A DNA stretch of 64,000 nt from an uncultured Candidatus Saccharibacteria bacterium (GTDB lineage Bacteria; Patescibacteriota; Minisyncoccia; Phycocordibacterales; UBA9973): assembly GCA_964573395.1 (NCBI GenBank), contig CAZNJI010000004.1:27379-91378 (forward strand), written 5' to 3'. How positions within the stretch are numbered: the stretch's first letter is position 1; each line of letters begins with the position of its first letter. Under the pieces are notes generated by a model. That model was given only the letters and a program-made list of their open reading frames with translations. It searched no databases and was not told where the DNA came from. Positions 8,279 to 60,372 of the stretch are shown here, one piece after another. The position numbers and the translations under genes are program-made.

Positions 8279-8989
8279 ATGGCTACAGCAAAAACTACAA
8301 CTAAAAAAGAGGCAGCAAAAGAGCAGAAAAATCTTGAAGCAGTGCTCTATACCCAAGTGGGAAAAGAATCAGGCTCTATTACGCTTCCTGAATCAGTATT
8401 CGGTTTGAAATGGAATGCTGACTTGGTGCACCAAGTTGCAACCAGCATGATGGCAAATGCTCGCGCAGGAACGGCGCACACCAAAGACAGAAGCGATGTT
8501 TCTGGCGGCGGCAAAAAGCCATGGAAACAGAAGGGAACCGGCCGCGCTCGCCACGGCTCGACGCGCAGCCCAATTTGGGTTGGCGGAGGAGTAACGTTCG
8601 GCCCTCGATCCGATAAGGATTACTCGAAGAAAATCAACAAGAAGATGCGCGCAAAAGCACTCTTCACCGTACTGTCGAAGAAATTCAATAATAGCGAATT
8701 GCTGTTTGTCGACAAGCTCTCTCTTGATGCGGTAAAAACAAAAGAAGCGCAACAGGTACTTGAGAACCTTGCAAAGATCAAAGGATTTGAAAAATTGAAC
8801 ACCAAAAAGAAAACCGGATCATTCGTAGTGCTTCCGGAAAAGAATGAAGCCGTCGAGAAATCATTTAGAAACATTCCAGGCGTTACTGTGGGAACGGTGC
8901 AAGACTTAAATGTTGTTTCAGCGCTTCATTTCAAATCGCTCGTTTTTGTCGGAAACGCAGCAGGCGCGCTTGAAGCAAAGCTAAAGTAA
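8279..8989 (+). CDS. rplD: 50S ribosomal protein L4
   Basis: KPWKQKGTGRARHGSTRSPIWVGGGVTFGPR motif. Confidence 0.95.
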   Translation: MATAKTTTKKEAAKEQKNLEAVLYTQVGKESGSITLPESVFGLKWNADLVHQVATSMMANARAGTAHTKDRSDVSGGGKKPWKQKGTGRARHGSTRSPIWVGGGVTFGPRSDKDYSKKINKKMRAKALFTVLSKKFNNSELLFVDKLSLDAVKTKEAQQVLENLAKIKGFEKLNTKKKTGSFVVLPEKNEAVEKSFRNIPGVTVGTVQDLNVVSALHFKSLVFVGNAAGALEAKLK

Positions 8990-9003: not shown

Positions 9004-9315
9004 ATGGCACGAACGAAAACAACAGAATCAAAGCAGGTAACCGCGCAGCATGGCATTTTGAAGCACCCGCGCATTACCGAAAAAGCGGCAACCGTTACGT
9101 CGTTTAACGTTTATGTATTCGACATCCTTCCTACCGTTACCAAAAGCGAAGTGGCGAAAGCGTTTTTCGCACAGTACGACATTAAGCCGGTAAAGGTGAA
9201 TGTGGTAAATAATAAGCAGAAAGCTGTGTATCGCCGCGGAGTCCTTGGATTTAAAGCTGGCATTAAAAAAGCATATGTCTATCTGCCGAAAGGAAAGACA
9301 ATTGATATCGTATAA
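9004..9315 (+). CDS. rplW: 50S ribosomal protein L23
   Basis: PRITEKA...FDI... L23 fold; operon position. Confidence 0.9.
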   Translation: MARTKTTESKQVTAQHGILKHPRITEKAATVTSFNVYVFDILPTVTKSEVAKAFFAQYDIKPVKVNVVNNKQKAVYRRGVLGFKAGIKKAYVYLPKGKTIDIV

Positions 9316-13835: not shown

Positions 13836-13866
13836 ATCAAGGAGCAAGGCGACTATGATTTATTGA

Positions 13867-13967
13867 CCCCGCCCTAATTTATTGATTAGAGAACGATGGT
13901 GTGATAAGGTAGGCGAGGCAAAAATTTTTATGCAAGCAGTTAATGTAATGAATAAATTAGGGCGGGG
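13867..13967. repeat. Perfect 17-bp inverted repeat (CCCCGCCCTAATTTATT ... AATAAATTAGGGCGGGG) with a 67-bp loop between rplN and rplX
   Basis: Arms at 13867-13883 and 13951-13967 are exact reverse complements. Confidence 0.85.
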
Positions 13968-14013
13968 TAGCGATTTTTATACTCGCGTTACTCGTTAAAA
14001 ATCAGCCATACGT

Positions 14014-26123: not shown

Positions 26124-26969
26124 ATGCAAAAGCGTTTTATTCCAGCACTTTTTCTCGTGGTTTATGGCGCGCTCCTGATCAAGGTAATGGTATTCAAAGA
26201 CGTGCCGCTTATGAGGGTGGGCGGAATTATGCTTAATTTTGGAGGAACGGCCGAAGGCCAAGCCAACCTCGTGCCGTTCAAGACCATCGTGCCGTATTTC
26301 TTTGGCGAGCAGGGGTTGATTATCGCGGGCATTAATCTTGCCGGAAACATTGCTTTACTGGTGCCAATCGGATTTCTTATTCCATTCGTTTATCGGAACA
26401 TGCAATGGAAAAAATCTTTGGCTCTTGGTGTCGCCGCCGGCCTTACCATCGAAGGAGCGCAGGTTTTGTTTCGCGTGGGCATATTCGACATTGATGACGT
26501 GATACTGAACGCGCTGGGGGTCATGATCGGCCACTTCACATGTACGATTCTTGGAAAGTGGGTACGTGAAAAAAGATATATAAACATACTTATTGCAGTA
26601 ATTATTGTTATTGCCGCCACTGCGGGTGCGTTTTATGCACTTTATCCGAAAGATCAACCGGTGAACCCAAGAGGTGTTGTTGGCAACAGTCAGGCTGGTG
26701 CAATTCTCCAAAATGGCGATCTCTGCGGTGGCACGGGCGGCAACGGGGAAATTGCCAGCGTAGGAATAAGTAATTTTATCATCAAACGAAATGATAACGA
26801 CAGTGGTCAGATCATCCATCTTACAGGCCGGGCCAGAATCGAAACTTCAACAGGTTCGGCAACTCTATCCGATTTGAAAATAGGAGATCATGTAACGCTG
26901 GTTGGAGGACCAAACCCCGATGGTAGTTTTACCGCGGAGGCTGTTTTCCTCTGTAATCCAACATACTAA
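26124..26969 (+). CDS. VanZ-like membrane protein with a C-terminal soluble beta-rich domain
   Basis: VanZ-like TM core (NLVPFKT..., DIDDVILNALGVMIGH). C-terminal GDHVTLVGGPNPDGSFTAEAVFL looks like a DUF5666-type beta domain. Confidence 0.55.
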   Translation: MQKRFIPALFLVVYGALLIKVMVFKDVPLMRVGGIMLNFGGTAEGQANLVPFKTIVPYFFGEQGLIIAGINLAGNIALLVPIGFLIPFVYRNMQWKKSLALGVAAGLTIEGAQVLFRVGIFDIDDVILNALGVMIGHFTCTILGKWVREKRYINILIAVIIVIAATAGAFYALYPKDQPVNPRGVVGNSQAGAILQNGDLCGGTGGNGEIASVGISNFIIKRNDNDSGQIIHLTGRARIETSTGSATLSDLKIGDHVTLVGGPNPDGSFTAEAVFLCNPTY

Positions 26970-27006
26970 AAAACATGAGCGCCCGAGAGGGCGCTCATGT
27001 TTTAAC
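26970..27006 (+). terminator. Rho-independent terminator (AAAAACATGAGCGCCC-TCGAGA-GGGCGCTCATGTTTT)
   Basis: Long perfect stem plus T-run. Confidence 0.75.
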
Positions 27007-27099
27007 AGGTGTGTTTATTGTACCAAGTTAGAACCTATTTCCAAAATCGCTGACAATGTGCCACGCGCGAAGCGCGAGGTGACTCTAAACTAAATCATA

Positions 27100-27330
27100 C
27101 GCTCCACGAAAGCCCCGCCACCGCCTCGCTTCACTCGACAACCCCGAAAGAAAACACTCCTTGCTTTTTGTTTTTGCGCGGGGGTGAATTTTTTCTGAAA
27201 AAGGAAAGGGTGTTTTCTTTCGGGGTTCTGCCCTCAATGCTTCGGGCAGGTGGCGGGGCTTCAATGCGGACTCGGTTTTGCGAAAACTATTTTTCTGGGG
27301 ATTTGGATTTTCGCAAAACCGAGACTAATT
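27100..27330. repeat. Nest of perfect palindromes in a GC-rich non-coding stretch
   Basis: Three inverted-repeat pairs. 13 bp: AAGCCCCGCCACC 27111-27123 / GGTGGCGGGGCTT 27250-27262. 18 bp: AACCCCGAAAGAAAACAC 27140-27157 / GTGTTTTCTTTCGGGGTT 27210-27227. 16 bp: CTCGGTTTTGCGAAAA 27272-27287 / TTTTCGCAAAACCGAG 27308-27323. Confidence 0.85.
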
Positions 27331-27370
27331 TGTTTTTGGATTTTGTCCGCGCGGAGGAGGGGTCTGGGGA

Positions 27371-27412
27371 GGAATCCGCGCGGGCTTTCTGATTTTTTGG
27401 CGAGTTTGACAA
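27371..27412. repeat. Left copy of a perfect 42-bp inverted repeat (GGAATCCGCGCGGGCTTTCTGATTTTTTGGCGAGTTTGACAA) bounding the copper cassette
   Basis: Exact reverse complement of 31425-31466. Contains the 3' arm of a terminator-like hairpin (TCCGCGCGGA 27344-27353 / TCCGCGCGGG 27375-27384), a T-run, and a TTGACA -35 box. Confidence 0.9.
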
Positions 27413-27443
27413 ATATACCCCCTAGGGGGTATATTTGTTTTAT
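27405..27443 (+). promoter_or_regulatory. csoR promoter with an overlapping CsoR-type operator palindrome (ACAAATATACCCC-CTAG-GGGGTATATTTGT)
   Basis: TTGACA 27405-27410; perfect 13-bp-arm palindrome 27409-27438 with an ATACCCC/GGGGTAT core like known CsoR operators. Confidence 0.6.
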
Positions 27444-27452
27444 ATGAAATAC

Positions 27453-27719
27453 ATGAATGAAAATAGTAAGGCAAAAGTCGTGCGCCGCCTAAAACTTTTA
27501 GAAGGCCAGGTTCGCGGACTTCAAAGGATGGTGGAAAACGACACCTACTGCATTGACGTGATCACGCAAACATCAGCGGTAAAACAAGGCTTGTCTAATG
27601 TCGAAGACTTGCTTCTTGAAAATCACCTTGGTCATTGCGTTTTCCATCAGGTGCAATCTGGTCAAACCAAAAAGGCCAAGGAAGAAATTATCAAAGTATA
27701 CAAGCTAAAGAGAAAATAA
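27453..27719 (+). CDS. csoR: Copper-sensing transcriptional repressor, CsoR/RcnR (DUF156) family
   Basis: [36 protein letters not shown]...HLGHC motif. ATG 27453 is in frame with the ORF-track start at 27435. Confidence 0.8.
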
Positions 27720-27720
27720 T

Positions 27721-30015
27721 ATGCATACACAAACTTACAAAGTAAAAGGCATGCATTGCGCTTCCTGTTCCTCGGTCATCGAGAAAACGTTTAAGAAAGT
27801 TGAGGGAGTGCAATCTGCAGAGGTGAATTACGGCACAGAGAAAGCCAAAGTTTCTTTTGATCCGTCAAAAACGAATCCCCACGATCTTTCCAAGCACATC
27901 GAGCCACTTGGTTATTCTTTGGAGGTTCCTTCCACCGCCGAGGAGATGGGCATGTCGGAGAGTGAGCATGCGGCGCATTTGGGGTTGAATCAATCGAAAA
28001 AAGAAAAGCTTGCAGAGGTTGCGGATATGCGGATAAAAGTGCTTTCGGCTATTCCTATCGCTATTTTTGCGGCCCTCGTTATGGGTTGGGAGATTCTGGC
28101 GAAGTATGGCCTTGTCTCCGAGATGAGTACCGTGCTCGAGGAATTTTTCCACCATCTCCTCCCCGTGTTGGCGACATACATTCTTTTCGTTGTTGGTAAG
28201 CCATACCTGCTTGGTTTTTACAGATTCCTTCGATACGGCAAGGCAAACATGGACACCCTGATCGGCATTGGAACCGTTGCCGCATTTTTATATAGCTTTG
28301 CAGTTACCGCCTTTGAGGAAACGCTCAAGCCTTTTATAAACGTTGAGTATCAGTATTACGACGTGACAATCGTTGTCATTACGTTCATTGCACTTGGTAA
28401 ATATTTGGAGGCAAGATCAAAAATAAAAACAGGAGATGCAATTGAAAAACTTCTTAACCTCCAAGCTAAGACTGCGCTTGTCATTCGTGACGGCAAAGAG
28501 ATAGAAATTTCAGTAAACGACGTTAAGCATGGAGATTTGATTATTGTAAAACCCGGAGCAAAGATTCCGGTGGATGGCATCATAACCGAAGGCAGTTCTT
28601 TCGTTGATGAGTCTATGGTCACCGGAGAGCCGATGCCAGCACAGAAAAAAGTCGGAGATGGTGTAGTGTCAGGAACTATTAACACGAGCGGTTCATTTAC
28701 GTTTAAAGCCACGAAAGTTGGCTCGGAGACTTTGCTTGCCCAGATAATCAAGATGGTTGAAGAGGCTCAAGGGAGTAAAGCACCGATTCAAGCACTGGCA
28801 GACAAAATCTCATCTGTCTTTGTGCCTATCGTGCTTGTAATCGCATTCCTTACTCTTGGTGCGTGGCTCATTGTCGGCTCACAGTATATAGGATTCTCCC
28901 AATCTCTATCGTTTGGCCTAGTGTCGTTTGTCGGCATCCTAGTGATTGCGTGTCCATGCGCTTTGGGACTTGCTACCCCTACCGCCATCATTGTTGGTGT
29001 TGGCAAAGGGGCTAAGGAAGGCATTCTCATCAAAGATGCCGCTACCCTTGAAAAATTGCACAAGGTGGACACGGTCATTGTCGACAAAACCGGAACGATC
29101 ACTATTGGAAAACCAACGCTTGTCGATATTCAAAACCTCTCAAATCTAAAAGATGATGAACTAGTCTCAATTATTGCTTCGTTAGAGAAAAAATCAGAAC
29201 ATCCGATCGCCCATGCAATCGTAAGCTACGCTCAAGAAAAGAATATCCCATTATCAGAGACTTCAGCGTTCGAAGGGATACAAGGCAAAGGTCTCAAGGG
29301 TAGAGTTAAAGAAACTGAATACTTTGTCGGTAATGCAAAACTCATAAGTGATCTAGAACTTTCTTTTGATGCTACAAAATTTCATGAGTTTACATCCCAA
29401 GGCAAGACACCCGTTATTCTCTCTACCAAAGAAAAGGTGCTCGGTTTTGTGATGGTAGCTGATGAAATAAAACAGGAGTCAAAACAGGCTATCTCTGATC
29501 TCCATAAGCTGGGCATCAAGGTCGTCATGCTCACTGGCGATGATGAAAAAGCGGCAAAATATATTGCTTCGCTTGTCGGCATTGATGATGTTGTCGCCCA
29601 TGTGCTACCACAAAACAAACTTGAGAAGATACAGTCACTTCAATCACAAGGACGGATAGTGGCCATGGCTGGTGATGGTGTAAACGATGCTCCAGCACTC
29701 GCTCAGGCAGATGTGGGCATCGCTATGGGAACTGGAACTGATGTGGCGATTGAGTCAGCCGGTATCACGCTTCTTGGTGGCGATATCTCAAAACTTGTGA
29801 AGGCCATCAGACTCTCCAAGATCACCATGAGAGGAATCAAGCAAAATTTATTCTGGGCATTTATATACAACGTAGTGGGCATTCCACTTGCGGCAGGAGT
29901 TTTCTATCCGATTTTCGGATGGTTATTAAACCCTATTTTTGCCGGATTCGCCATGGCGATGTCATCGGTGTCAGTGGTGTCGAACTCACTCCGAATTAAA
30001 ACTAAGAAATTATAA
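27721..30015 (+). CDS. copA: Cu(I)-translocating P1B-type ATPase
   Basis: N-terminal HMA domain (GMHCASCSS), TM CPC motif ([11 protein letters not shown]), [15 protein letters not shown]. Confidence 0.95.
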
Positions 30016-30018
30016 ATT

Positions 30019-31026
30019 ATGAAATCATACACATTCCACGTTTCCGGTACTCATTGTGCATCATGCAAAATATTCATTGAAGACACTCTTAATGAACAGA
30101 TTGGTATTGAGCGTACTCATGTTGATTTGAAAAGTGAAACTGTCTCGATTGACACTACCCTTGAAGAGAGCCAGCACAAACTCGCAGAAATATTGACTGA
30201 AAAAATAAAGCACAACGGCTATTCTCTGTCCGTCGAGAAGAAGGTTAAAGAAAAACAGAACGGTGATGTGATTTGGAAAGCATTGCCAATTGGAATTGGT
30301 TTTCTTGTTTTGTTTTTCTTACTACAGAAGTCAGGAATCCTTAATCTTGGAATTGGCGGACAAACTACACCAGTTACAAGTTTTATTATTGGTCTCATAG
30401 CGTCAGTGTCCAGCTGTCTTGCCATCGTGGGAGGTTTGGTTTTATCTCTCTCCGCTAAGATATCACAGGACAACGTGAGCGATACAAAGACGTTCGTGCT
30501 TTTTCACGCAGGAAGGCTTGTAAGCTTTGCGGCCCTGGGTGGTGTTCTTGGGGCGGTTGGCAGTGCAATCGGCATTAACTTTACGCTTACCTCAATACTG
30601 GGGCTTTTGGCATCGGTGGTAATGCTGTTACTCGGTCTGAACTTGGTCGGAGTGTTTGAAAAAAATAAAGTTGCGCTACCTTCAGGACTATTCAATTTTT
30701 TTAGGAGAATCGAGCATAAGACATTCACCCCTCTTGTTCTTGGTTTTGCTACATTTTTCTTGCCGTGTGGCTTTACACAGTCGATGCAGGTTTCTGCACT
30801 GGGAAGCGGATCGTTTATGTCCGGACTTTTTATCATGCTTGCATTCGCACTTGGAACACTGCCAATGCTCGTGCTTCTTTCATTCGGTTCGGCCTCGTTT
30901 GCCCACGGGAAGCACGCTCCATTGTTTTTTAAGTCAGCAGGAATAGTGGTGATCGGACTCGGACTGTTTGCGTTTCTCGCTGGACTTGCCGGGCTCGGAA
31001 TTATTAACCCACTATTTAACATTTAA
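30019..31026 (+). CDS. HMA-domain membrane protein with a DsbD/CcdA-like transmembrane thiol domain
   Basis: N-terminal GTHCASC metal-binding fold; six or more TM helices with membrane-embedded Cys (SSCLA, FLPCGF). Confidence 0.6.
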   Translation: MKSYTFHVSGTHCASCKIFIEDTLNEQIGIERTHVDLKSETVSIDTTLEESQHKLAEILTEKIKHNGYSLSVEKKVKEKQNGDVIWKALPIGIGFLVLFFLLQKSGILNLGIGGQTTPVTSFIIGLIASVSSCLAIVGGLVLSLSAKISQDNVSDTKTFVLFHAGRLVSFAALGGVLGAVGSAIGINFTLTSILGLLASVVMLLLGLNLVGVFEKNKVALPSGLFNFFRRIEHKTFTPLVLGFATFFLPCGFTQSMQVSALGSGSFMSGLFIMLAFALGTLPMLVLLSFGSASFAHGKHAPLFFKSAGIVVIGLGLFAFLAGLAGLGIINPLFNI

Positions 31027-31030
31027 TTTT

Positions 31031-31423
31031 ATGAATAAAACCGCTTCCATTATCATCACGCTCGCACTTGTTATAGGTCTTGGCATTGTGTTTTTAGGGC
31101 AATCAAAAAATAACTCCGAGTCTACGACTGGATCAGCTCAAAACGTCGAAATACGAGACGGGGTTCAGTACGTCACCATTAACGCTCGAGGCGGATACTC
31201 TCCCAAGGTGACTAAAGCGCAAGCCAACATGCCGACAAAATTGATTGTTAAAACCAATGGCACATACGATTGTTCGGCATCGCTCGTTATCAGATCAATT
31301 GGTTATCAGAAAATCTTACCTCAAACAGGAGAAGAACTTATTGATCTTGGTACTCCGCAAGCTGGAACAGTCCAAGGTCTTTGCAGTATGGGAATGTACA
31401 ATTTCGCAGTCAATTTTAAGTAG
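31031..31423 (+). CDS. Membrane-anchored putative copper-binding protein (cupredoxin-like?), 130 aa
   Basis: N-terminal TM anchor; conserved Cys/Met pattern (TYDCS...GLCSMGMY); sits in the cop cluster. ATG 31031 is in frame with ORF 30968. Confidence 0.45.
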   Translation: MNKTASIIITLALVIGLGIVFLGQSKNNSESTTGSAQNVEIRDGVQYVTINARGGYSPKVTKAQANMPTKLIVKTNGTYDCSASLVIRSIGYQKILPQTGEELIDLGTPQAGTVQGLCSMGMYNFAVNFK

Positions 31424-31424
31424 C

Positions 31425-31466
31425 TGTCAAACTCGCCAAAAAATCAGAAAGCCCGCGCGGATTCCC
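31425..31466. repeat. Right copy of the perfect 42-bp inverted repeat bounding the copper cassette
   Basis: Exact reverse complement of 27371-27412; lies 93 bp from the tmRNA 3' end. Confidence 0.9.
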
Positions 31467-31500
31467 CTGCGGATTCTGAGCGAAATTCAGGCGAAACACA

Positions 31501-31525
31501 GTGGGCGTGCCTTCGGCACGCCCAC
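31501..31525 (-). terminator. Hairpin GTGGGCGTGCC-TTCG-GCACGCCCAC downstream of the ssrA 3' end
   Basis: Perfect 10-bp stem; read on the minus strand it follows the tmRNA and precedes a U-rich run. Confidence 0.5.
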
Positions 31526-31559
31526 GCATTGGCTCGTTCAGAGCCTCTTAGTTCTGTTT

Positions 31560-31944
31560 TGGTGGAGATGGGGGGAATTGAACCCCCGTGCAATAGGGAA
31601 TGACATACAAATCTCCGTGCGCAGCACAACTTGGGCGTTTAAGCGATGCACGAACAAGTCGTGCAAACTGTGCATTGCCGATCCTTTACGTTGTCGTTTT
31701 GCTCTTAAGGAAAAGAGCAGAATCTATTCTGATGTTCTTACACCTCTACCTTTCTATCAGAAATTGAAAGGAGAGACGCCAGCTTGGCTTACGCGAAAGC
31801 TGGAGCGAAGGCCTTACCGAAGTAAGGAGACTTCACCTTAGCGACACTGTTGCCAGATATCGTGTGAACGAAGGTTGCGGGATTACGTCCGTACCCGGCA
31901 CGCATGCATGTCTAATTCTTCTATTGTCGATGCCGATCATCCCC
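31560..31944 (-). ncRNA. ssrA: tmRNA (SsrA), about 385 nt, with encoded CCA
   Basis: Minus-strand 5' end GGGGAUGAUCGGCAUCGAC resembles the tmRNA consensus GGGGCUGAUUCUGGAUUCGAC. The 3' end is GGGGGUUCAAUUCCCCC-CAUCUCC-ACCA, a T-arm plus acceptor pairing with the 5' GGGGAUG, with a G3:U wobble. The internal ORF GCU AAG GUG ... GCG UAA predicts the tag AKVKSPYFGKAFAPAFA. smpB lies just upstream. Confidence 0.85.
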
Positions 31945-32017: not shown

Positions 32018-32281
32018 TCACTTATTCTGCGATTTTAAATAATCAACTTTTAGTTTCCTTTTAAACCGACCTGCCCACAGGCTTTTGAGAAATCTTTCTC
32101 GGCTAAATGCCTGTACCTTACTCTCAAATTTTTCTGAGTGAATAAGCTCAACAGGTAAGCGGTTTTGTGTGGCAGGAACATGTCCATCTTGATGACGTTT
32201 AAGTCGATTATTTAAATTGCTTGTACAACCGACGTATAACTTTTTATCTTTAAGAGATATGAGTATATAGACGATATACAT
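32018..32281 (-). CDS. Stand-alone GIY-YIG nuclease-domain protein (87 aa), wedged between smpB and ssrA
   Basis: MYIVYILISLKDKKLYVGCTSNLNNRLKRHQDG...ELIHSE...RERFLK is a GIY-YIG/URI signature. Paralogue of the gene at 10646-10915. Confidence 0.75.
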   Translation of the reverse strand: MYIVYILISLKDKKLYVGCTSNLNNRLKRHQDGHVPATQNRLPVELIHSEKFESKVQAFSRERFLKSLWAGRFKRKLKVDYLKSQNK

Positions 32282-38576: not shown

Positions 38577-38644
38577 ATATAAAGTAAAACATGAAGTTGT
38601 GAATTATTCCAACCTTGGCTAGAATCAGTGTCAGTTCTTTCGAT

Positions 38645-38718
38645 GGGAGTATAGCTCAGTTGGTTAGAGCATCGAGCTTATACCTCGAGGGTCGATGGTT
38701 CGAGTCCATCTACTCCCA
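38645..38718 (+). tRNA. tRNA-Ile with anticodon UAU (reads AUA); CCA not encoded
   Basis: Cloverleaf folded by hand. Acceptor GGGAGTA/TACTCCC; D-stem GCTC/GAGC. Anticodon stem TCGAG/CTCGA with loop CTTATAC, so anticodon TAT. T-arm GATGG-TTCGAGT-CCATC. Discriminator A. Confidence 0.8.
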
Positions 38719-38829
38719 CCCGTTTGGATGCATTATCTGAAGGCTTACCTGACCTTTATCCACAAGCAGGATTCTGGCATCTGGTTTCTCTGTGGACTTT
38801 CGTATCTCTACTGCGATACAATAAAGGGC

Positions 38830-41800
38830 ATGAACAAATATATAGGGGCACTATTATCAGCAGGTTTTTTCTTGTTAATCATTGGTTTCGGCGTCGTTCC
38901 AGCTCACGCGCAAACAACTACGCCTTTTACTACTAATCTCTCGATCGGCTCAACCGGCCCCGAAGTACTCAAGCTGCAGCAGTGGCTCAATGCAAACGGC
39001 TTCGTTGTTGCCCAATCCGGGCCTGGTTCTCCTGGGAACGAAACAAGCAGCTACGGACGGGCAACTGCGAATGCGGTGCTGAAATTCCAAGAAGCGCACT
39101 TCTCGCAGATTCTTGCCCCGCTTGGCATCTCAAAAGGAACTGGCAGATTTGCCGCCGCAACCAGAAACTACCTGAATTCTCTTTTGGGAGGAATGGTGTT
39201 AGGGGAAACAACTGAATCGTTCCTGGCATCTGCCGGCACTCCTGCAGGAATTGAAGACAATACCTCTTCGTTGGAGATCGGCATGAAGTTCACTCCGAAT
39301 GTTTCTGGAAAGATTACCGGCGTTCGCTTCTATAAAGCGTCAAACAACTACGGCACGCACACCGGAACGCTCTGGGGTTCGAACGGCTCGCGCCTTGCTA
39401 CTGGTACCTTTACCAACGAAACGAGCTCTGGCTGGCAAACCCTTACCTTCGATGCTCCTGTTTCTGTTACTGCCGGCACAACGTACACTGCCTCGTACTT
39501 TGCGCCACAGGGAAGATACTCGTTTACCTGTAACTACTTCACTTCTCCTCGAACCGTGGGTAATATTTCTACTCCAACATCTGCCGGCGTTTACCGATAC
39601 GGATCATCCTCTGCATTTCCAAGCCAGACCTTTAATTACTGCAACTACTGGGTAGACGTGGTTTTTGTAACCGGATCAACTGATCCGGCTCCTACGCCAA
39701 CACCTACCCCGACACCAACACCTACTCCAACTCCGACACCTTCAGGAACGGTATCTCTGTGGTCAAATAGCACCACGCCAACGCTCGTTACCGACATTCA
39801 GGCATACCCGGTTGAACTCGGAATAAAATTCAGCACTACCGTTCCGGGAACGATTACCGGCATTAAATACTATAAAGGTCCGCAGAATACCGGCACTCAC
39901 ACCGGAACGCTCTGGAGCAGTAATGGATCAAAACTTGCAAGCGTCACGTTCACGAACGAAACCAGCTCGGGCTGGCAGACGGCGCTCTTCTCGAATCCGG
40001 TATCAATTCAGGCAAACACGACATATGTCGCTTCCTACTTTACCCCGGTCGGATTCTTCTCAGTTGACATGAATTATTTCACCGCTTCCCGATCGTTTAA
40101 TACCTACTTCAATACTTCGGTTGGAGCTGGCGTATTTAAATACGGATCCGCAGGTTTCCCAACCACGACCCTCTATTCTAATTACTGGGTAGACGTGCTC
40201 TTCGTGCCAAGCACTGGCGGAACAACTCCACCTCCACCACCTCCGCCAAGTAATGACACCAGTTCTCCAACCGTTTCATTGACTGCTCCGGGAAACCGAT
40301 CGACGGTAAGCAACACGGTTACCGTTTCAGCGAGCGCCTCTGACAATGTGGGGGTTGCCGGCGTACAGTTCCGAGTGGATGGCAACAATATTGGTGGAGA
40401 AGATACGGTTGCACCGTACGTAATAGATTGGGATACCCGAAGCATTGCGAATGGACGGCATTACCTAACCGCGGTTGCGCGCGATGCAGCAGGAAATACC
40501 CGAACCTCAAGCCAGCGCCGCGTTACGGTAAGTAACACCACCACGACTCCTCCATCTAGTGATACGACTGCACCAACCGTTTCAATTACCGCTCCGGCAA
40601 ATGGCGCAACAGTTTCTGGAACGACTACCGTTTCAGCGAGCGCCTCTGATAATATGGGCGTAGTAGGCGTACAGTTCAAGTTAAATGGTACGAACCTCGG
40701 CCTTGAAGACACCAGTTCGCCATACTCAACTTCATGGAACACGACCGGTGCGGCAAACGGAACTTATACCCTTACCGCAACTGCGCGCGATGCGGCAGGA
40801 AATACCAGAACGACAAGTGCTGTTTCGATTACCGTGAATAACGTTGTGACGCCGCCAGCTGACACAACCAATCCAAGCGTCTCATTTTCTGCTCCAGCAA
40901 GCGGTGCAACGGTAAGCCTTGCGACTACCGTCTCGGCAAACGCTTCCGACAATGTCGGTGTTGCGAGCGTCCAGTTCTTGGTTGATGGCGTTAGTATCGG
41001 AGAAGACACTACTGCGCCATATTCAGTTTCATGGATTACCACGACAACTACGAATGGCTCGCATACCCTTTCGGCAATTGCTCGCGATGCGGCAGGAAAC
41101 ACCGCAACCGCAACTCGATCGGTAACGGTTAACAATGCAACTGCTTCGAACGATACGACTCCGCCGGTCGTTACCATGCTAACGCCGATTAATAACAGCA
41201 CCGTATCGGGTACTGCTCTCGTTACCGCTTCGGCAACCGATAACATTGGCGTGGTAGGCGTACAGTTCAAACTAAACGGCCAGAATCTTGGTTCTGAAGA
41301 CACTACGCTTCCATATGAATACTCATGGAACACCAGCGACTATGCGAATGGTTCATACACGCTTACCGCAACCGCTCGCGATGCGGCAGGAAACACGAGA
41401 ACAGCGCCTGGATTCGGAATCAACGTATCGAACGGAACTGTACCGCCGCCAACCGGAGGGAGCAGTTTTACCTTTACCCAAATTCCTTACTCAGATCCTG
41501 ACATCATCGCGCCAGGACGCGGAGCGGAACAGTGGCACAATAGTACTGCGCGAATTCCGAATCCAACCGAGAGCCAATCACGAACAACCGAGAACTCGCT
41601 TGACGTGTACTACCGATTCGAATGGGCAAGAATTGAAGGGGCAACCCAAGGTTCATACAACTGGACGTACTTCGATAACTTAATACGAGGTGCAATTAAC
41701 AACGGACAGAAATTCTCGTTCGGTATCATGACTCACTACAGCGACGGCGGATATGTTTCATATGACGGTGGTACCTCTTCTTATCCACAGTATCTGCACA

Positions 41801-48996: not shown

Positions 48997-51900
48997 ATGA
49001 GACGAATCCGCTCCGGCATATTTCGGCGTTACCGAATGACCATTCTCGGTTTGCTTGGAGCATTCCTTTTTTCGGCCATCATCTCATTTGCCGCTCCACC
49101 CAGCTCACCATACACTCCCGGAGAAACGCTTGATCCAACCTGTGCGCCGGGAGACGCGAATTGTTACGTTGAAAGTTCAAGCGGAGATTCTTTTTATACC
49201 GATGATGGCGCGCTAACTGGAAACAGAGCAATCGATTTAGATGGCAACACACTTAGTTTTACTGGCGGAACGGTTTTAATCGGCGGAACACCAACGTTTT
49301 CCGGCTTCTCAACAAATGGCGGGCTCCTTTATACAAACGGCTCCGGCGTCGTCTCACAAACAGGCGCAGGCACTGCCAACCAAGTGCTCCACGGCGGAAT
49401 CAATCCGACATACTCAGCAGTCTCGCTTTCTGCTGATGTTTCTGGTGATCTGCCGTTTGCAAACCTCGCCCAGATTACCGGCCTTTCAGTATTAGGTGTT
49501 ACCGGAACCAGCACCGCTGATGTTGCGGCAATTACCGGTACGGCAAATCAGGTGCTTCGCATTAATGCAGGCGGAACAGCGCTTGGTTTTGGCACGATAG
49601 CAAATGCAGGGCTTGCAAACTCCTCAATTAGTTTCGCGACCGGAACTTCAGGTACTAACGTGAACTGGTCTTCATCTCCCGTTTCTCTGGGCGGAACGGC
49701 AACCTTAAATATCCCCGATGCTAGTGCTTCGGCGCGAGGCTTGGTAACAACAACCGGCACGCAAACCTTTGCTGGAGACAAAATCTTTACCAGTGAAGTG
49801 GCAGTTGGCACCGATTTGGTAGACGGCCGATTCCAAGTAAGTTCTGCGGAGGGAAATTACCTGCGCATAGACAACGACAACGGAATTTACGGAATAGGAG
49901 ATCTCAGCGGCCTCTATAATGGCAGTTACTTTCAGATTGATGATGCTAATCACGAGATAGACCTTTGGGTTACCGGAGAAGTAACTGAAAATAATTTTGA
50001 AATTGGTGATGGGTATGGAGGTTTTTCTAGCTACTATCAAAATGGAACCGTAACAGCATCAAGCGAGTATTATTTGGAGGCACTTGGCGGAATTACTATT
50101 AGTTATGATTATGAAGATACGAATACAACTCAAGTTATAGATTCCGGCCTCCGTTTTGATGGAAATTTTATTGAGCTAAAAACAGAAGAAAATTATGATA
50201 ACGGAGCCGAAGTATCTTATGCTGGTCTTATGCTCAATCAAGCTTGGGCAGAGCTTGGTGCAAGTTATGAATTTAATAATTACGACTATGATGCAACGAT
50301 CCAAACCTCAAATGGTGGTACCGAGCTCTATTCTTCTCGAGAGTACAATGGAGAAACTGAAGCATTTTCAGAACTGAGCCTCAGACCTGATATTTCAGAA
50401 ATGATAACTCCTCGGTTAGGTATTGTGGGCACCTATGCCTATAACGACACGCTTCCGTTTCAAGACGCTCAGGTTGCAATTCTTGGCGGATTGGGGCCGG
50501 AAGAGATTACGAACGGCACTTTCACCGGCAATGCCAATGGATGGGTAACGGGAGGAGATGACGATACGCTTCCTTCTGATAACTGGGCGTATGGCACCAA
50601 TAATGCACAGCATACTCCCGGGGAAGATGTTGTTCTTCGCCAAGATGGTGAGCTGGTATACGGAGAAACATATAAAGCTCAATTTACTATTGGCGGCACA
50701 ACCGGTTGGGTACAGGTATGTTTGGGTGAGAACGGCGACTGTGCAGAGTTTGATGCAGGAGACGGTTCGGTAACTTTTACGGGAAGTTGGGAGGCGCTGA
50801 CCAGCAGTAAGATACTTTTTTACCCATCATCCGATTTCGACGGCACGATCGACAATGTGTCGGTAAAGCGCGTGTTCTCTAACCGGCATGCTGCGCTTGA
50901 TGTGCAAGGGAAAACCAACCTGCAGAATTTGGCGATATCAGGCACCGCCCTTGGCGATTTATATGGTGCCGAATTGATAACGAACGGAACCTTTACGGCT
51001 AATACAGATGGCTGGCAAACGGAAGATCCAGGGGGCGGTAATCCGGAAGCGCTTGATTCAAAAGGTTGGGCATATGATAACCGGGGATGGGTTGAATTTG
51101 ATTCGGGTACGCAACAATCAAATTACCTGACCCAAGTCATAGATTTGACTGAAGGCGCCCAATACCGTGTTTCGATAAAGGTACAAGATGGAGACGGAAG
51201 AGTATACGTAGCGCTTGGAGGGGATAATGATGCAAATTATATCGAGCTTAGTGGAGAGAGTGGTATTACTACTGTAACGCTTACTGCTGGCGCGGGTGAT
51301 TTTCTCTGGATTGTTCCTGACACGGACAATAACGGCGATTGGTTTAGTGGTTTTATTGATGAAGTATCCGTAAAAGAGGTTACCGGAGAAGCGGCGCTGA
51401 GTGTTACTGGCAACACCGTGCTACATAGTTTGGCCGGAAACGGGAGCGGTTTTGTTTCGGTTGATAACGATGGCGTGCTTTCGTGGAGTGCAGGCGGAGC
51501 CGGCGGGGTGGGGGGTAGCAATACGCAGCTGCAATTCAACGACGATGGCAACATGGCTGGCGCAACTGATGTTCTCTATAGTAAAGGAGCTTCCGGTAGT
51601 TCAGGCGATTCATTGGGCGACGAAGAAATAACTAATGGCTCTGTTACTGGAAATACAAATGGCTGGACGGCCATTAATGGCGACCCACTCCCAGCGAACA
51701 ACTGGTCTTATGGCAGTAACAACCTTAATTACGACCCAAACGGAGGAAACCCAGTTGCACAACTAGGAGAACTTGTGGAAGGAGCAACCTACAGAATTAC
51801 ATTTACAGTAACTGGAACTGCTGGAACAATAAGCGTAAGACTCGATGGTGACATTGATGCTGAATATGCTTATAACGCCGGCACAGTAACACTAGATAAA

Positions 51901-60268: not shown

Positions 60269-60372
60269 CCAGCCGTAGTTTTGCGTTATATAGAGAGCGC
60301 GTGAGTAGTTCTTATTGGGGTGCGCAGTCTTCTTAAATTAACAAGCCGCAGGACTAGCAAAACTACGGCTGG
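60269..60372. promoter_or_regulatory. 16-bp perfect inverted repeat (CCAGCCGTAGTTTTGC ... GCAAAACTACGGCTGG, 72-bp spacer) abutting a TATAAT -10 box
   Basis: Arms 60269-60284 and 60357-60372 are exact reverse complements. TATAAT at 60377-60382 lies 11 bp before the REC start codon. Confidence 0.6.

Follow-up and report, generated by a model that had tools for sequence, protein, structure and literature searches.

Large serine recombinases (LSRs) move several well-described kinds of elements, including serine integrase prophages, the serine transposons Tn4451/Tn5397 with TnpX/TndX, and SCCmec with CcrAB. Patescibacteria (CPR) have tiny genomes, are thought to be poor in mobile elements, and acquire their accessory genes in ways that are poorly understood. 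The stretch of Patescibacteria DNA analyzed here (the window, 64 kb in length, from a Parcubacteria/Kaiserbacteria-like genome) carries a noncoding nest of palindromes, followed by a copper-resistance (cop) cassette and the tmRNA gene, ssrA. The nest is a previously undescribed element; no description was found in the literature, and it has no Rfam family. We read it as the probable distal arm (terminal repeat or boundary module) of a cargo island that is associated with an LSR and lies at the 3' end of ssrA.

How do such islands compare with the known LSR-moved elements? Shared features are an LSR gene at one extremity, beside a tRNA-type gene, in related loci although not in the window itself; termini that are mutually inverted, as attP half-sites are (41 nt in the window, at least 141 nt in contig L101, and 198 to 354 nt in contigs L200, L201, and L202); and accessory cargo (metal resistance, beta-lactamase/VanY, or restriction-modification). 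The arms, however, are 150 to 500 bp long, hairpin rich, and near identical, whereas att half-sites are about 20 bp long and imperfect. In addition, the recombinase gene lies between inverted repeats of about 147 bp and is found in both orientations, and cargo units lacking a recombinase bear their own arms and can stack (locus L132). The Hin/Gin/Cin/Pin switches and shufflons offer another parallel. As in those systems, segments bounded by inverted repeats occur in both orientations in near-identical contigs; as with hin, a serine recombinase is encoded beside or within the invertible segment, and a flip could couple or uncouple the external promoter of the A-block, the outer terminus of the element. 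The recombinase here is a large one, not a small invertase, and the repeats are 5 to 20 times longer than hix/gix sites. Unlike in Hin-type switches, flipping the cargo should leave its expression unchanged, because the identical arms both carry the -35 box of the promoter.

Mosaic palindromic repeats, such as BIME/REP in Escherichia coli, BOX in pneumococcus, Correia in Neisseria, and MITE-flanked cassettes (for example, integron mobilization units), are likewise modular noncoding sequences in which palindromes are nested and some units are optional; they sit behind terminators, hold promoter- and terminator-like signals, and can flank cargo in pairs. The element described here differs in its apparently low copy number (one in the 64-kb window), in its strict polarity to tRNA and LSR genes, and in lacking target duplications or an associated DDE/RAYT transposase in the loci seen. 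The integron (intI, attI, attC), too, combines a recombinase gene, an adjoining structured noncoding region that holds a divergent promoter, and, beyond it, arrayed accessory cassettes that are poor in promoters and delimited by palindromes. Here, though, the neighboring recombinases are of the serine rather than the tyrosine type, inverted copies bracket each cassette in place of a single attC at the cassette 3' end, and regulators and promoter parts come with the cassettes themselves. No GTTRRRY core pair (attC R''/R') was found in the arms.

The element and its locus

The three perfect inverted-repeat pairs reported by the first-pass annotation are all present (Table 1), and two of them, of 13 and 18 bp, do nest into one hairpin of about 152 nt (H1), as had been proposed. 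Are these palindromes more than chance would supply? For the 18-mer pair, 0.07 is expected in shuffled sequences, and 2 matches were reached in 0 of 100 shuffles; neither the 13-mer nor the 16-mer is rare by itself once mismatches are tolerated. The whole 361 nt folds with z scores of -5.7 (+ strand) and -10.4 (- strand), and 0 of 100 shuffles folded as well. As a set, the palindromes are far above chance expectation. Other claims needed revision. The limits of 27040 to 27345 were too narrow, the true extent being about 27008 to 27402/27411; the flanking repeat, given as 42 bp, is 41 nt long; and a region described as GC rich relative to its surroundings has a G+C content of 0.49, barely higher than that of its neighbors (0.43 to 0.49). 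Taken literally, the statement that no open reading frame fits fails, as mechanical frames of 59 to 74 amino acids overlap the region, while its substance holds: the region is noncoding, because homologous copies differ by many 1- to 2-nt indels.

Table 1. Features of the element and its locus (positions in the window)
Feature	Position	Strand	Basis or remarks
Host flank, bidirectional terminator hairpin of VanZ-family gene (26124-26969)	26970-27003	+	15-bp perfect inverted repeat, A-run and T-run; Pfam VanZ
A-block, conserved outer terminus	27008-27053	+	Sharp left homology boundary, near-invariant columns (16-copy alignment)
H0 hairpin, optional module, CCACGCGC-GAA-GCGCGAGG	27061-27080	+	Inverted repeat, fold
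H1, 152-nt branched palindrome	27110-27261	+	Outer 13-bp stem, 30-nt inner stem (27140-27169 / 27198-27227), side hairpin 27228-27248
Inverted repeat, 13 bp	27110-27122 / 27249-27261		Perfect pair
Inverted repeat, 18-bp perfect core	27140-27157 / 27210-27227		Extends to 30-nt arms, 27140-27169 / 27198-27227, 90% complementarity
H2 hairpin, 16-bp perfect stem, conserved loop (AAACTATTTTT...)	27271-27323	+	Inverted repeat
Inverted repeat, 16 bp	27271-27286 / 27308-27323		Perfect pair
H3, GC-rich 11-bp stem (hairpin 27345-27385, two copies of TCCGCGCGGA), then T-rich run	27345-27399	+	Fold, inverted repeat
Left copy of 41-nt perfect inverted repeat	27371-27411	+	H3 3' arm, T-run, GGCGAGTTTGACA
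Cargo: csoR operator, csoR, copA, HMA-DsbD_2, cupredoxin-like gene	27412-31424	+	Pfam
Right copy of 41-nt inverted repeat, putative remnant of proximal inverted element copy	31425-31465	-	Match to 27371-27411
Putative LSR-unit arm remnant (type a'), directly downstream of tmRNA 3' end	31466-31559	-	Colinear with tRNA-proximal LSR arms of L202, L200, L201, L132, L131
tmRNA gene (ssrA), tRNA-like 3' end as presumed island anchor	31560-31944	-	Rfam RF00023, 103 bits

The element starts 4 to 5 nt past the VanZ-gene terminator hairpin, and at other loci it likewise begins right behind an unrelated terminator hairpin or a tRNA. On its minus strand, the A-block reads TTGGAA-16 nt-TGgTACAAT, a predicted sigma70-like promoter directed outward (leftward), with a scan score of 9/12 and an extended -10 box (27044->17). 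In relatives, the A-block end abuts the LSR unit, and the sole recombination junction seen, a single case (L187 versus L132), falls inside the A-block after ..ACCAA. The module at 27054-27107, which includes H0, is missing from L143, L193, L123, and L192, and in L174 the H0 stem has a different, compensated sequence. H1, aligned in 36 homologous copies with a mean column identity of 79%, also forms, by itself, the arms of invertible segments (L105, L139, L141, and L159). H2 is missing from L131, L172, and L178. The full element is not bounded by terminal inverted repeats, as its A-block does not match its 3' end in inverted orientation; such repeats, of 13 bp, are found only in H1.

An intrinsic (Rho-independent) terminator consists of a GC-rich stem, a loop of 3 to 8 nt, and a U-tract directly behind the stem. 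H3 has the stem and a conserved T-rich tail (TTTCTGATTTTTT); its conserved, purine-rich loop (GGAGGGGTCTGGGGAGGAA) is 19 nt long, and a consensus terminator scan called none. Judged by sequence, H3 and its T-run appear to form a terminator-like inner end that faces the cargo. An H3-type hairpin, T-run, and GGCGAG also close the arms of the LSR unit. The last 6 nt of the left 41-nt copy are the -35 box of the predicted csoR promoter (TTGACA-18-TATATT; scan score, 11/12). In the window, Rfam 15 at the gathering threshold detected only the tmRNA and two tRNAs, leaving the element unmatched, and at E values up to 10 the interval 26900-27500 gave only sub-threshold matches to unrelated hairpin families, such as miRNAs.

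The order in the window is element, cop cassette, 41-nt mirror fused to an LSR-arm remnant, and tmRNA. DNA homology to other Patescibacteria cop cassettes covers exactly 27412/3 to 31417/22 and ends at the arms. In L101, whose cassette is 99.9% identical, the right arm extends over at least 141 nt that mirror H3 and H2; L101 may thus be the undeleted form of the window arrangement, although its terminal inverted repeats, like those of L156, could be assembler fold-backs. The LSR-arm remnant shares a 23-nt exact hairpin match with L202. By self-search, the 64 kb contain one full element and one 41-nt fragment; homology of the left and right arms along their full length was rejected, as beyond the 41 nt they are not significantly alike (24/300 shuffles). 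There is no LSR gene in the 64-kb window, so the link to a recombinase rests on relatives. No direct target-site duplication was found at the 27007 / 31466 flanks or at those of other copies, nor was a duplicated tmRNA 3' end found in the window as an att repeat. In L004, a relative, VanZ lies directly beside ssrA with no island; a duplicated ssrA 3' end is present in this locus, which is too diverged to give attB. The region 3' of ssrA is variable in relatives, with different inserted genes in L012, L015, and L068. Among 80 VanZ-based loci from species genomes, no element homologue was found, and VanZ-ssrA synteny without an island was seen. Exact-protein look-ups of VanZ, CsoR, and the cupredoxin returned only identical short Logan contigs, which are uninformative on orientation and flanks because they stop inside the 41-nt repeat.

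Conservation and covariation

Scanning metagenome contigs with the H1 18-mer gave 90 loci, of which 58 are homologous to the window; chosen in this way, the 58 are a biased sample. Many of them match the entire 27008-27402 stretch at 73 to 92% identity. In an alignment of the copies, the element has sharp boundaries on the left and right, and modules are gained and lost as whole units, while the neighboring genes are different in nearly every locus. The interval 27008-27411 is a full copy of a conserved, modular, noncoding element of about 400 bp.

Do the stems covary? In H2, both sides changed in 7 of 16 pairs among 20 copies, with one-sided (G-U) changes in 0 of 320 cells. H3 has at least four covarying stem variants around a conserved loop. 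For H2 and H3 combined, 93.8% of cells are paired (79.3 +/- 1.4% in shuffles; 0/500), 67 cells carry double changes (30 in shuffles; 0/500), and the covariation score is 0.325, compared with 0.107 in shuffles and at most 0.117 in slid controls. The H2 and H3 stems covary while remaining strictly Watson-Crick. Both conservation and covariation are thus present in relatives; their absence was what the first-pass annotation would have taken as the mark of a decaying remnant. For the H1 inner stem, column-based counts gave 22 G-U and 25 A-C pairs; these counts were partly spoiled by misalignment and have been superseded by per-copy folds and the dedicated H2/H3 alignment. RNA folds of 26 copies contain 211 G-U pairs on the + strand versus 72 on the - strand, and the minimum free energy of the + strand is the lower one in 22 of the 26. 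This + strand excess hints at a role at the RNA level, of which the arm model covers termination only.

Inverted pairs, recombinases, and tRNA genes in relatives

Inverted pairs, 24 in all, occur in 17 of the 58 element loci (30 to 526 nt and 93 to 100% identical, mostly 99 to 100%), as opposed to 1 of 80 control loci, which were unmatched for lineage. The inverted element copies enclose 1 to 5.5 kb of cargo, for example, copper export genes, VanY with a beta-lactamase, or a restriction-modification system. In L132, six segments, each between inverted repeats, abut one another in a chain, and LSR genes are present in two of them. The LSRs have the Pfam domains Resolvase, Recombinase, and Zn_ribbon_recom; in relatives, the LSR gene is found at a tRNA gene 3' end, between its own inverted repeats of about 147 bp. 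Nine loci of the 18-mer set, or 12 when L200, L201, and L202 are counted, have an LSR gene on the side of the A-block. About 15 loci have a tRNA gene on that side, and none has one on the H3 side.

An independent test used those three long contigs, picked by LSR homology only: L200 (138 kb), L201 (426 kb), and L202 (154 kb). In each of them, the order is tRNA, inverted repeat, LSR, inverted repeat, element (-), cargo, element (+). There are two element copies per island, and the arms of 198 to 354 nt are 99.4 to 100% identical.

In relatives, segments between arm repeats occur in both orientations. The near-identical contigs L186 and L132 differ only in the orientation of an LSR segment, and L139 and L141, which are 99.6% identical, differ only by inversion of an arm-flanked segment. 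Contigs with the window's own cop segment break within the repeat. Arm lengths and inner junction sequences vary among copies, which fits repeat expansion or truncation more than a fixed recombination site and counts against the arm model. One arm in L131 stops exactly at the H1 apex; at most occupied sites, the arms have complete H1 or H3 hairpins, with the cargo behind the T-run, not in the loop. Among the contigs compared, no crossover dinucleotide, att core, excised circle, or empty-versus-occupied site pair was identified. Viral contigs scanned with the H1 arm, H2 hairpin, H3 loop, and A-block gave no real matches and no link to phages. The cop cassettes of the P0158 type were considered as arm bearing and ruled out; they belong to a 5.5-kb LSR element of ordinary type that lacks inverted repeats.

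A terminal arm and its alternatives

What, then, is the element? Three origins had been offered from the sequence: a structured RNA, a site for a recombination or partition protein, and stacked scars of earlier insertions. The recombination site comes closest, as a conserved arm brackets cargo beside LSR genes and inversions are seen; that the LSR acts on the arms we infer, as we do their mode of action in transcription. The arms constitute a family of noncoding modules of about 200 to 400 bp with fixed polarity. The outer terminus is the A-block, with its predicted outward promoter and the ..ACCA|AG.. junction motif, followed by the optional H0, H1, and H2; the inner end is the GC-rich hairpin H3, the T-run, and GGCGAG. 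Complete islands read tRNA gene, LSR gene with inverted repeats of about 147 bp, arm (A-block on the LSR side), 1 to 5 kb of cargo, and inverted arm. With the arms as terminal repeats, the LSR or homologous recombination in these conserved sequences could move, swap, and flip cargo. The A-block promoter of the proximal copy would drive the LSR gene, and the hairpin stack, H3, and T-run would stop outside transcription before the cargo promoter, whose -35 box sits in the arm. In the window, a deletion probably removed the proximal arm and the LSR gene; its endpoints would be the inner ends of the LSR arm and of the proximal element copy, which resemble each other and point the same way, and its product would be the 41-nt mirror repeat joined to the LSR-arm remnant beside the tmRNA. 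The window fits the island layout because L004 is island free, cassette homology stops at the arms, the ssrA-side flank matches LSR arms, L101 has a mirror arm, and the inner ends share a common design. Counting against the arm reading, serine recombinases are not known to require structured repeats of 150 to 400 bp.

A broader proposal, to be taken as tentative, is that Patescibacteria carry a two-part serine-recombinase cassette system made up of an autonomous LSR unit of about 1.9 kb and nonautonomous cargo units bracketed by arms, one of which would be the nest in the window. The LSR gene would lie between inverted arms of about 147 bp and may be turned on or off according to which way it faces an outside promoter. 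Units would stack at tRNA/tmRNA 3' ends, flip freely, and trade cargo between genomes through the conserved arms. Such a system would be integron-like in function, with a different chemistry and site logic.

Could the element instead be a stand-alone structured RNA gene of about 350 to 390 nt on the + strand, ending at H3 and either acting in trans or processed from tRNA/tmRNA-linked transcripts? Compensatory changes do keep H2, H3, and H0; loops are conserved; a T-run follows the terminator-like H3 in most copies; the + strand has the G-U excess and better folds described above; and tRNA genes that share the element's orientation are often found immediately upstream of it. Yet no convincing promoter is seen on the + strand, the conserved promoter-like hexamers being on the - strand, and nothing but generic hairpins matched in Rfam. 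The H1 inner stem showed no G-U preference in the column counts, whole modules come and go among ever-changing neighbors, and inverted copies that are 99 to 100% identical, with variable truncation, surround cargo. The lack of G-U intermediates in H2, the lack of an Rfam family, and the inverted pairs favor a DNA-level palindrome or cis element, and we regard an RNA gene as quite unlikely. A selfish palindrome mosaic like MITEs, BIMEs, or BOX, moved by an unrelated transposase in trans and found near cargo and LSR genes only because all occupy variable regions, is an unlikely explanation as well. The modular, optional units, an H1 that occurs alone with its 13-bp terminal inverted repeats, sharp boundaries in many flanks, and insertion just behind terminator hairpins all suit it, and pairs of a noncoding repeat of about 400 bp around cargo recall MITE-flanked composites. 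Against it stand the single copy in 64 kb, the lack of any target-site duplication or mutually inverted ends of the full element, and the lack of a DDE, HUH, or RAYT transposase gene among the Pfam-annotated neighbors, along with the strict polarity toward tRNA genes and the LSR genes beside the A-block in 12 loci, including all three LSR-selected contigs.

The hairpins might also fold, perhaps as single strands, into sites for recombination or docking in the style of integron attC or CTX-phage attP. Cargo inserted at palindrome centers would come to be flanked by inverted repeats, and the strictly Watson-Crick stems, the abutting palindrome-like pairs of L132 (pattern a a' b b' c c'), the L131 arm that ends at the H1 apex, and cassette homology that stops exactly at the arms are all in keeping with this. 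There is little chance that it is correct: the arms of most occupied sites hold whole hairpins rather than halves, with cargo after the T-run, the H2 and H3 loop sequences are conserved, no tyrosine recombinase was found in the loci examined, and LSRs are known to act on duplex sites. The variable region 3' of ssrA in L004, L012, L015, and L068 is what a functionless pile of terminators and decaying insertion scars would produce. That view is hardly credible, because some 395 nt are kept as one ordered unit at 73 to 92% identity in at least 58 contigs that come from many sites, dozens of the contigs being unrelated; moreover, the stems covary, and the architecture recurs in L200, L201, and L202. 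Three further candidates were discarded: a group II intron, prompted by the boundary GTGTG right after terminators (no intron-family matches and no domain V); oriC (cumulative GC skew without a sign change); and binding sites of the neighboring ArsR regulator (no support).

Overall, a conserved, structured, noncoding module marks the borders of accessory cargo beside tRNA-type genes, and the LSR family of these islands is extremely abundant in the phylum. Cargo and recombinase gene both lie between long, perfect inverted repeats that flip in nature. The islands are under-represented in metagenome-assembled genomes because the repeats break short-read assemblies (many contigs are of about 1.9 kb and 4.1 kb). 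If the probable reading is right and the arms are cargo handles, they would give islands a DNA signature to search for, in a phylum whose annotation reveals little. They would also be a new type of large-serine-recombinase substrate, with possible use in genome engineering, and would explain the wide spread of copA, whose protein is 89 to 93% identical across many different CPR genomes.

A conserved palindromic element

The non-coding unit in front of the copper-resistance (cop) cassette runs from an outer A-block through hairpins H0 to H3 to an inner T-run. The three perfect inverted-repeat pairs of the first-pass annotation are confirmed at 13, 18, and 16 bp; the 13- and 18-bp pairs are nested, forming a branched hairpin, H1, of 152 nt. 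The chance expectation for the 18-mer pair is 0.07, and compared with dinucleotide shuffles the region folds with z = -5.7 (plus strand) and -10.4 (minus strand). The adjoining repeat exists as well, but as an inverted repeat of 41 nt rather than one of 42 bp. The G+C content, thought to exceed that of the surroundings, shows no notable increase. Mechanical ORFs overlap the region, contrary to the annotation, yet its non-coding reading stands because homologous copies carry frame-breaking indels. The Rfam comparison proposed there matched no family to the element.

Features of the window
Feature	Position	Strand	Remarks
Long-range stem	13866-13968		intergenic; 23-nt arms, 57-nt loop; begins ACCCCGCCC
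ArsR-family regulator, then VanZ-family gene			upstream of element
Bidirectional terminator of VanZ-family gene	26970-27003
A-block	27008-27053		sharp outer bound
H0	27061-27080		short hairpin, precedes H1
13-bp perfect pair (H1)	27110-27122 / 27249-27261
18-bp perfect core pair (H1)	27140-27157 / 27210-27227		extends to 30-nt arms, 90%
16-bp perfect pair (H2)	27271-27286 / 27308-27323
H3	27345-27385		TCCGCGCGGA twice around purine-rich loop, then T-run
41-nt inverted repeat	27371-27411 / 31425-31465		right copy follows cupredoxin-like gene; then 95 nt to tmRNA gene 3' end
csoR promoter, operator	TTGACA at 27406; palindrome 27409-27438		follows palindrome region; TTGACA lies in left 41-nt repeat
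csoR			first cop gene
copA	27721-30015
HMA-DsbD_2 gene, then cupredoxin-like gene			after copA
tmRNA gene (ssrA)	31560-31944	minus
Small GIY-YIG-type ORF	32030-32260	minus	putative, from reading the translation
smpB			after GIY-YIG-type ORF
tRNA-Ile gene	38644-38721		anticodon TAT directly encoded
Diverged tandem/periodic repeats	40315-41407; 50811-53232
Long-range stem	60269-60372		intergenic; 16-nt arms, 72-nt loop

How widespread is this structure? Homologous structured regions, which the first pass suggested looking for next to ssrA or cop loci of related genomes, do exist. Scanning public metagenome contigs with an 18-mer from the H1 arm, by which this first sample is biased, gave 90 loci; in many of these the arm is present on each strand, at a spacing of about 70 nt. 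By BLAST, 58 of them are homologous to the window, many across the whole of 27008-27402, at 73 to 92% identity. Alignments, of 36 copies for H1 and of 16 for the full element, resolve a single unit that is polar and modular: the A-block, an optional H0, H1, an optional H2, and H3 with its T-run and a GGCG-rich end. Outside both boundaries the sequence differs in nearly every locus; a tRNA gene or an unrelated terminator hairpin typically makes up the left flank. On its minus strand the A-block carries TTGAAA/TTGGAA, 16 nt, and TGgTAAAAT/TACAAT, with hexamers and spacing both conserved, and is predicted to be a good outward-pointing promoter.

Covariation was tested in the H2 and H3 core of 20 distinct copies, with 500 shuffles and slid controls. 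Paired cells reach 93.8%, versus 79.3 +/- 1.4 in shuffles (0/500), double-sided changes occur in 67 cells versus 30 (0/500), and the covariation score, 0.325, exceeds both that of the shuffles (0.107) and those of the slid controls, which reach 0.117 at most. At least four stem versions are present for H2 and at least four for H3 (one compensated insertion included), while the loops are conserved. The first pass would have taken a lack of covariation, conservation, and transcription as the mark of a decaying repeat remnant; the stems covary, and homologues are numerous. At which level is the structure maintained? H2 has zero one-sided (G-U) changes and the H1 inner stem has G-T and A-C mismatches in equal numbers, as expected of a DNA-level palindrome or of mutually homogenised arms. 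By contrast, when 26 distinct copies are folded, G-U pairs number 211 on the plus strand versus 72 on the minus strand, and the plus strand gives the better fold in 22 of the 26; some RNA-level constraint on that strand is therefore likely, e.g., on transcripts that read through from outside and stop at H3. The two signals are compatible.

Recombinase genes, inverted arms, and inversion

About 15 loci have tRNA genes within ~35 to 400 nt of the A-block side; on the H3 side, none of the element loci has one. Large serine recombinase (LSR) genes (Resolvase + Recombinase + Zn_ribbon_recom) adjoin the A-block in nine loci. Long-range inverted repeats (30 to 526 nt, 93 to 100% identical) flank segments of 1 to 5.5 kb in 17 of the 58 element loci (24 pairs), compared with only 1 of 80 control loci, unmatched for lineage. 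The commonest pattern, as in the window, is a full element, cargo, and then the inner end of the element again, inverted. Contigs frequently break off in the far arm, and faulty assembly may account for some of those that end in inverted repeats.

The LSR gene itself lies between inverted repeats of ~147 nt (arms a and a'), one of which overlaps its 3' coding end. In L200 (10001-11596), L105 (3777-5321), and L131 (73-1719), the LSR frame stays open across the neighbouring tRNA gene, read in antisense, and the predicted C-terminal tails include ..GFEPRTY.. and ..RREDSNL. The 13-kb contig L132 (1-13228) consists of six abutting segments, each between inverted repeats. LSR genes make up two of the six; the others hold a nucleotidyltransferase and DinB, a NUDIX protein and a methyltransferase, DHDPS and an aminotransferase, and an MFS transporter. 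Chains of the form a a' b b' c c' also occur in L105 (3800-7800) and L131, with arms of 68 to 181 nt that are mostly 98 to 100% identical. Repeat expansion by gene conversion, or insertion into palindromes, is a possible source of the perfect arms in these three chains.

Do the segments invert? L139 and L141 are 99.6% identical, their sole difference being the inversion of a 1,064-nt segment between H1-containing arms. Between L186 and L132 (85 to 93% identical), the LSR segment is in opposite orientation relative to the element.

Members of the LSR family are very numerous in Patescibacteria and often lie on contigs of ~1.7 to 2.1 kb, close to the combined length of the gene and both arms. 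Three contigs, L200 (ENA, 138 kb), L201 (NCBI MAG, 426 kb), and L202 (JGI, 154 kb), were selected solely for encoding an LSR homologue. All three have the order tRNA (Val, Tyr, Val), arm a', LSR gene, arm a (145 to 149 nt), element in minus orientation, cargo, and element in plus orientation. The A-block of the proximal copy adjoins the LSR, its promoter pointing into that gene; the LSR segment faces the opposite way in L111 and L186. The cargo, 1.9 to 3.1 kb, encodes GreA and a radical SAM protein, a peptidase S51, or VanY and a beta-lactamase. The distal copy (198 to 354 nt) is 99.4 to 100% identical to its partner, with its A-block outermost, where a host terminator immediately precedes it. 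H1 is absent from L201 and L202, and the result is therefore independent of the 18-mer of the first scan.

The probable island at ssrA and its copper cassette

Homologues of VanZ place the organism among the Patescibacteria/Parcubacteria. The Kaiserbacteria relative L004 has the order VanZ, ssrA, GIY-YIG, smpB, and ftsH, as in the window, with only 288 bp between VanZ and ssrA. In the window, the stretch from ~27008 to ~31560 has therefore been inserted at the ssrA 3' end, where other relatives have different genes. L004 also has an ORF where the window has the one between ssrA and smpB, and in L015 a GIY-YIG-like ORF adjoins ssrA. L004, which is island-free, carries a second ssrA 3' end and terminator 207 bp from the real one (8906-8975, 9108-9185), each copy within a ~65-nt hairpin; the duplication resembles an att-type scar that an earlier element targeting ssrA may have left.

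For CopA, cluster representatives number more than 120, in many Patescibacteria and at 89 to 93% protein identity over the full length, whereas identity to VanZ reaches no more than 66% in its best relative; horizontal spread of the cop genes therefore looks likely. Between the window and those cassettes, DNA homology spans exactly 27412/3 to 31417/22, and the 41-nt repeats adjoin the transferred cargo but lie outside it. One large group has the same cassette in a conventional 5.5-kb element with an LSR gene and without inverted repeats. The stretch 27412-31424 looks like a phylum-wide mobile copper-resistance cassette. In one group, an identical CopA protein occurs in at least 10 genomic contexts inside the 5.5-kb LSR element, and many CopA-bearing contigs are ~4.08 kb long, which equals the spacing of the repeats.

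The window has no LSR gene, and its two arms show no significant likeness beyond 41 nt. The ssrA-side flank (31421-31566, minus strand) is colinear with the tRNA-proximal LSR arms of L202, L200, L201, L132, and L131, with the shared order of a tRNA-like ..CACCA end, AAACAGAACTAAG, a GC hairpin (a 23-nt exact match with L202), CTGTTTCGCCTGA, a second hairpin, a T-run, and GGCGAG. LSR arms and element arms have a common inner-end design. In the simplest history, the original island would have read ssrA, a', LSR, a, element(-), cop cargo, element(+). The inner ends of a' and of the proximal element copy resemble each other and point the same way; a deletion from one to the other would have eliminated the LSR and joined a' to the final 41 nt of the element. 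In L101, from another sample and 99.9% identical over 4,195 nt, the right arm continues as a mirror image of H3 and H2 over 141 nt or more, as the undeleted form should, though this mirroring may be an assembler fold-back. Read on the template of L200 to L202, the palindrome region is thus probably the island's distal arm, intact from A-block to inner end.

Elsewhere in the window, one of the two further long-range stems (13866-13968) is reminiscent of the H1 outer stem; neither matches Rfam at the gathering threshold, and both are possibly uncharacterised leaders or small RNAs. The tRNA-Ile gene is also present in L008, L012, L068, and L120; a directly encoded TAT anticodon is unusual in bacteria. 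The two diverged repeat regions include ~300-nt units (3 to 4 copies, 63 to 72% identity) and a 52-nt motif present five times at spacings of 384 to 1,116 nt, and probably lie inside repeat-domain protein genes.

A proposed mechanism and its relation to known systems

The arm is conserved and its stems are maintained, near-identical inverted pairs surround cargo by LSR genes and tRNA ends, and segments invert. What might the arms do? Promoter, terminator, and recombination-site functions are predicted from sequence, and the proposals follow in decreasing order of support. (i) The arms would be terminal repeats of LSR-associated cargo units, with greatly extended termini; to our knowledge, the termini of elements moved by serine recombinases are always mutually inverted. 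(ii) Long identical arms would make flipping possible and, because arms are conserved between genomes, cargo could be replaced by recombination within them. (iii) The A-block would be an outward promoter for the recombinase and perhaps also a recombination junction. (iv) With H3 and the T-run at its end, the hairpin stack would shield the cargo from outside transcription, with the arm providing the -35 box of the cargo promoter in either orientation.

A candidate junction comes from a single case: L187 (9330-9380) and L132 (383-402) share the element and 2.5 kb downstream of it at 99.7% identity, but within the A-block their sequences part abruptly, immediately past ..TTTTACCAA (..ACCAA). Beyond the break, L187 leads to infB (IF-2) and L132 to an LSR unit. 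The ACCA|A(G)..TAGAAC motif also follows real tRNA ends in LSR arms. No excised circle or att core was found. Island sites recur downstream of infB, rplS, and prfB (L105, L143, L088, L170, and L151).

Is this a known kind of element? The element is probably not a MITE, as its two ends are not inverted repeats of each other and its flanks show no target-site duplication, nor an attC site, as the neighbouring recombinases are of the serine type, cargo lies between inverted copies, and the arms show no GTTRRRY core pair. LSR-moved elements, serine invertase switches, and mosaic palindromic repeats (BOX, BIME) have some features in common with it and the integron platform resembles it by analogy, but none fits fully, and a full-text literature search returned no description of the element. 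Our preferred reading is an island that is associated with an LSR, ends in long, structured repeats, and contains units able to invert; less probably, the element represents a distinct cassette system.
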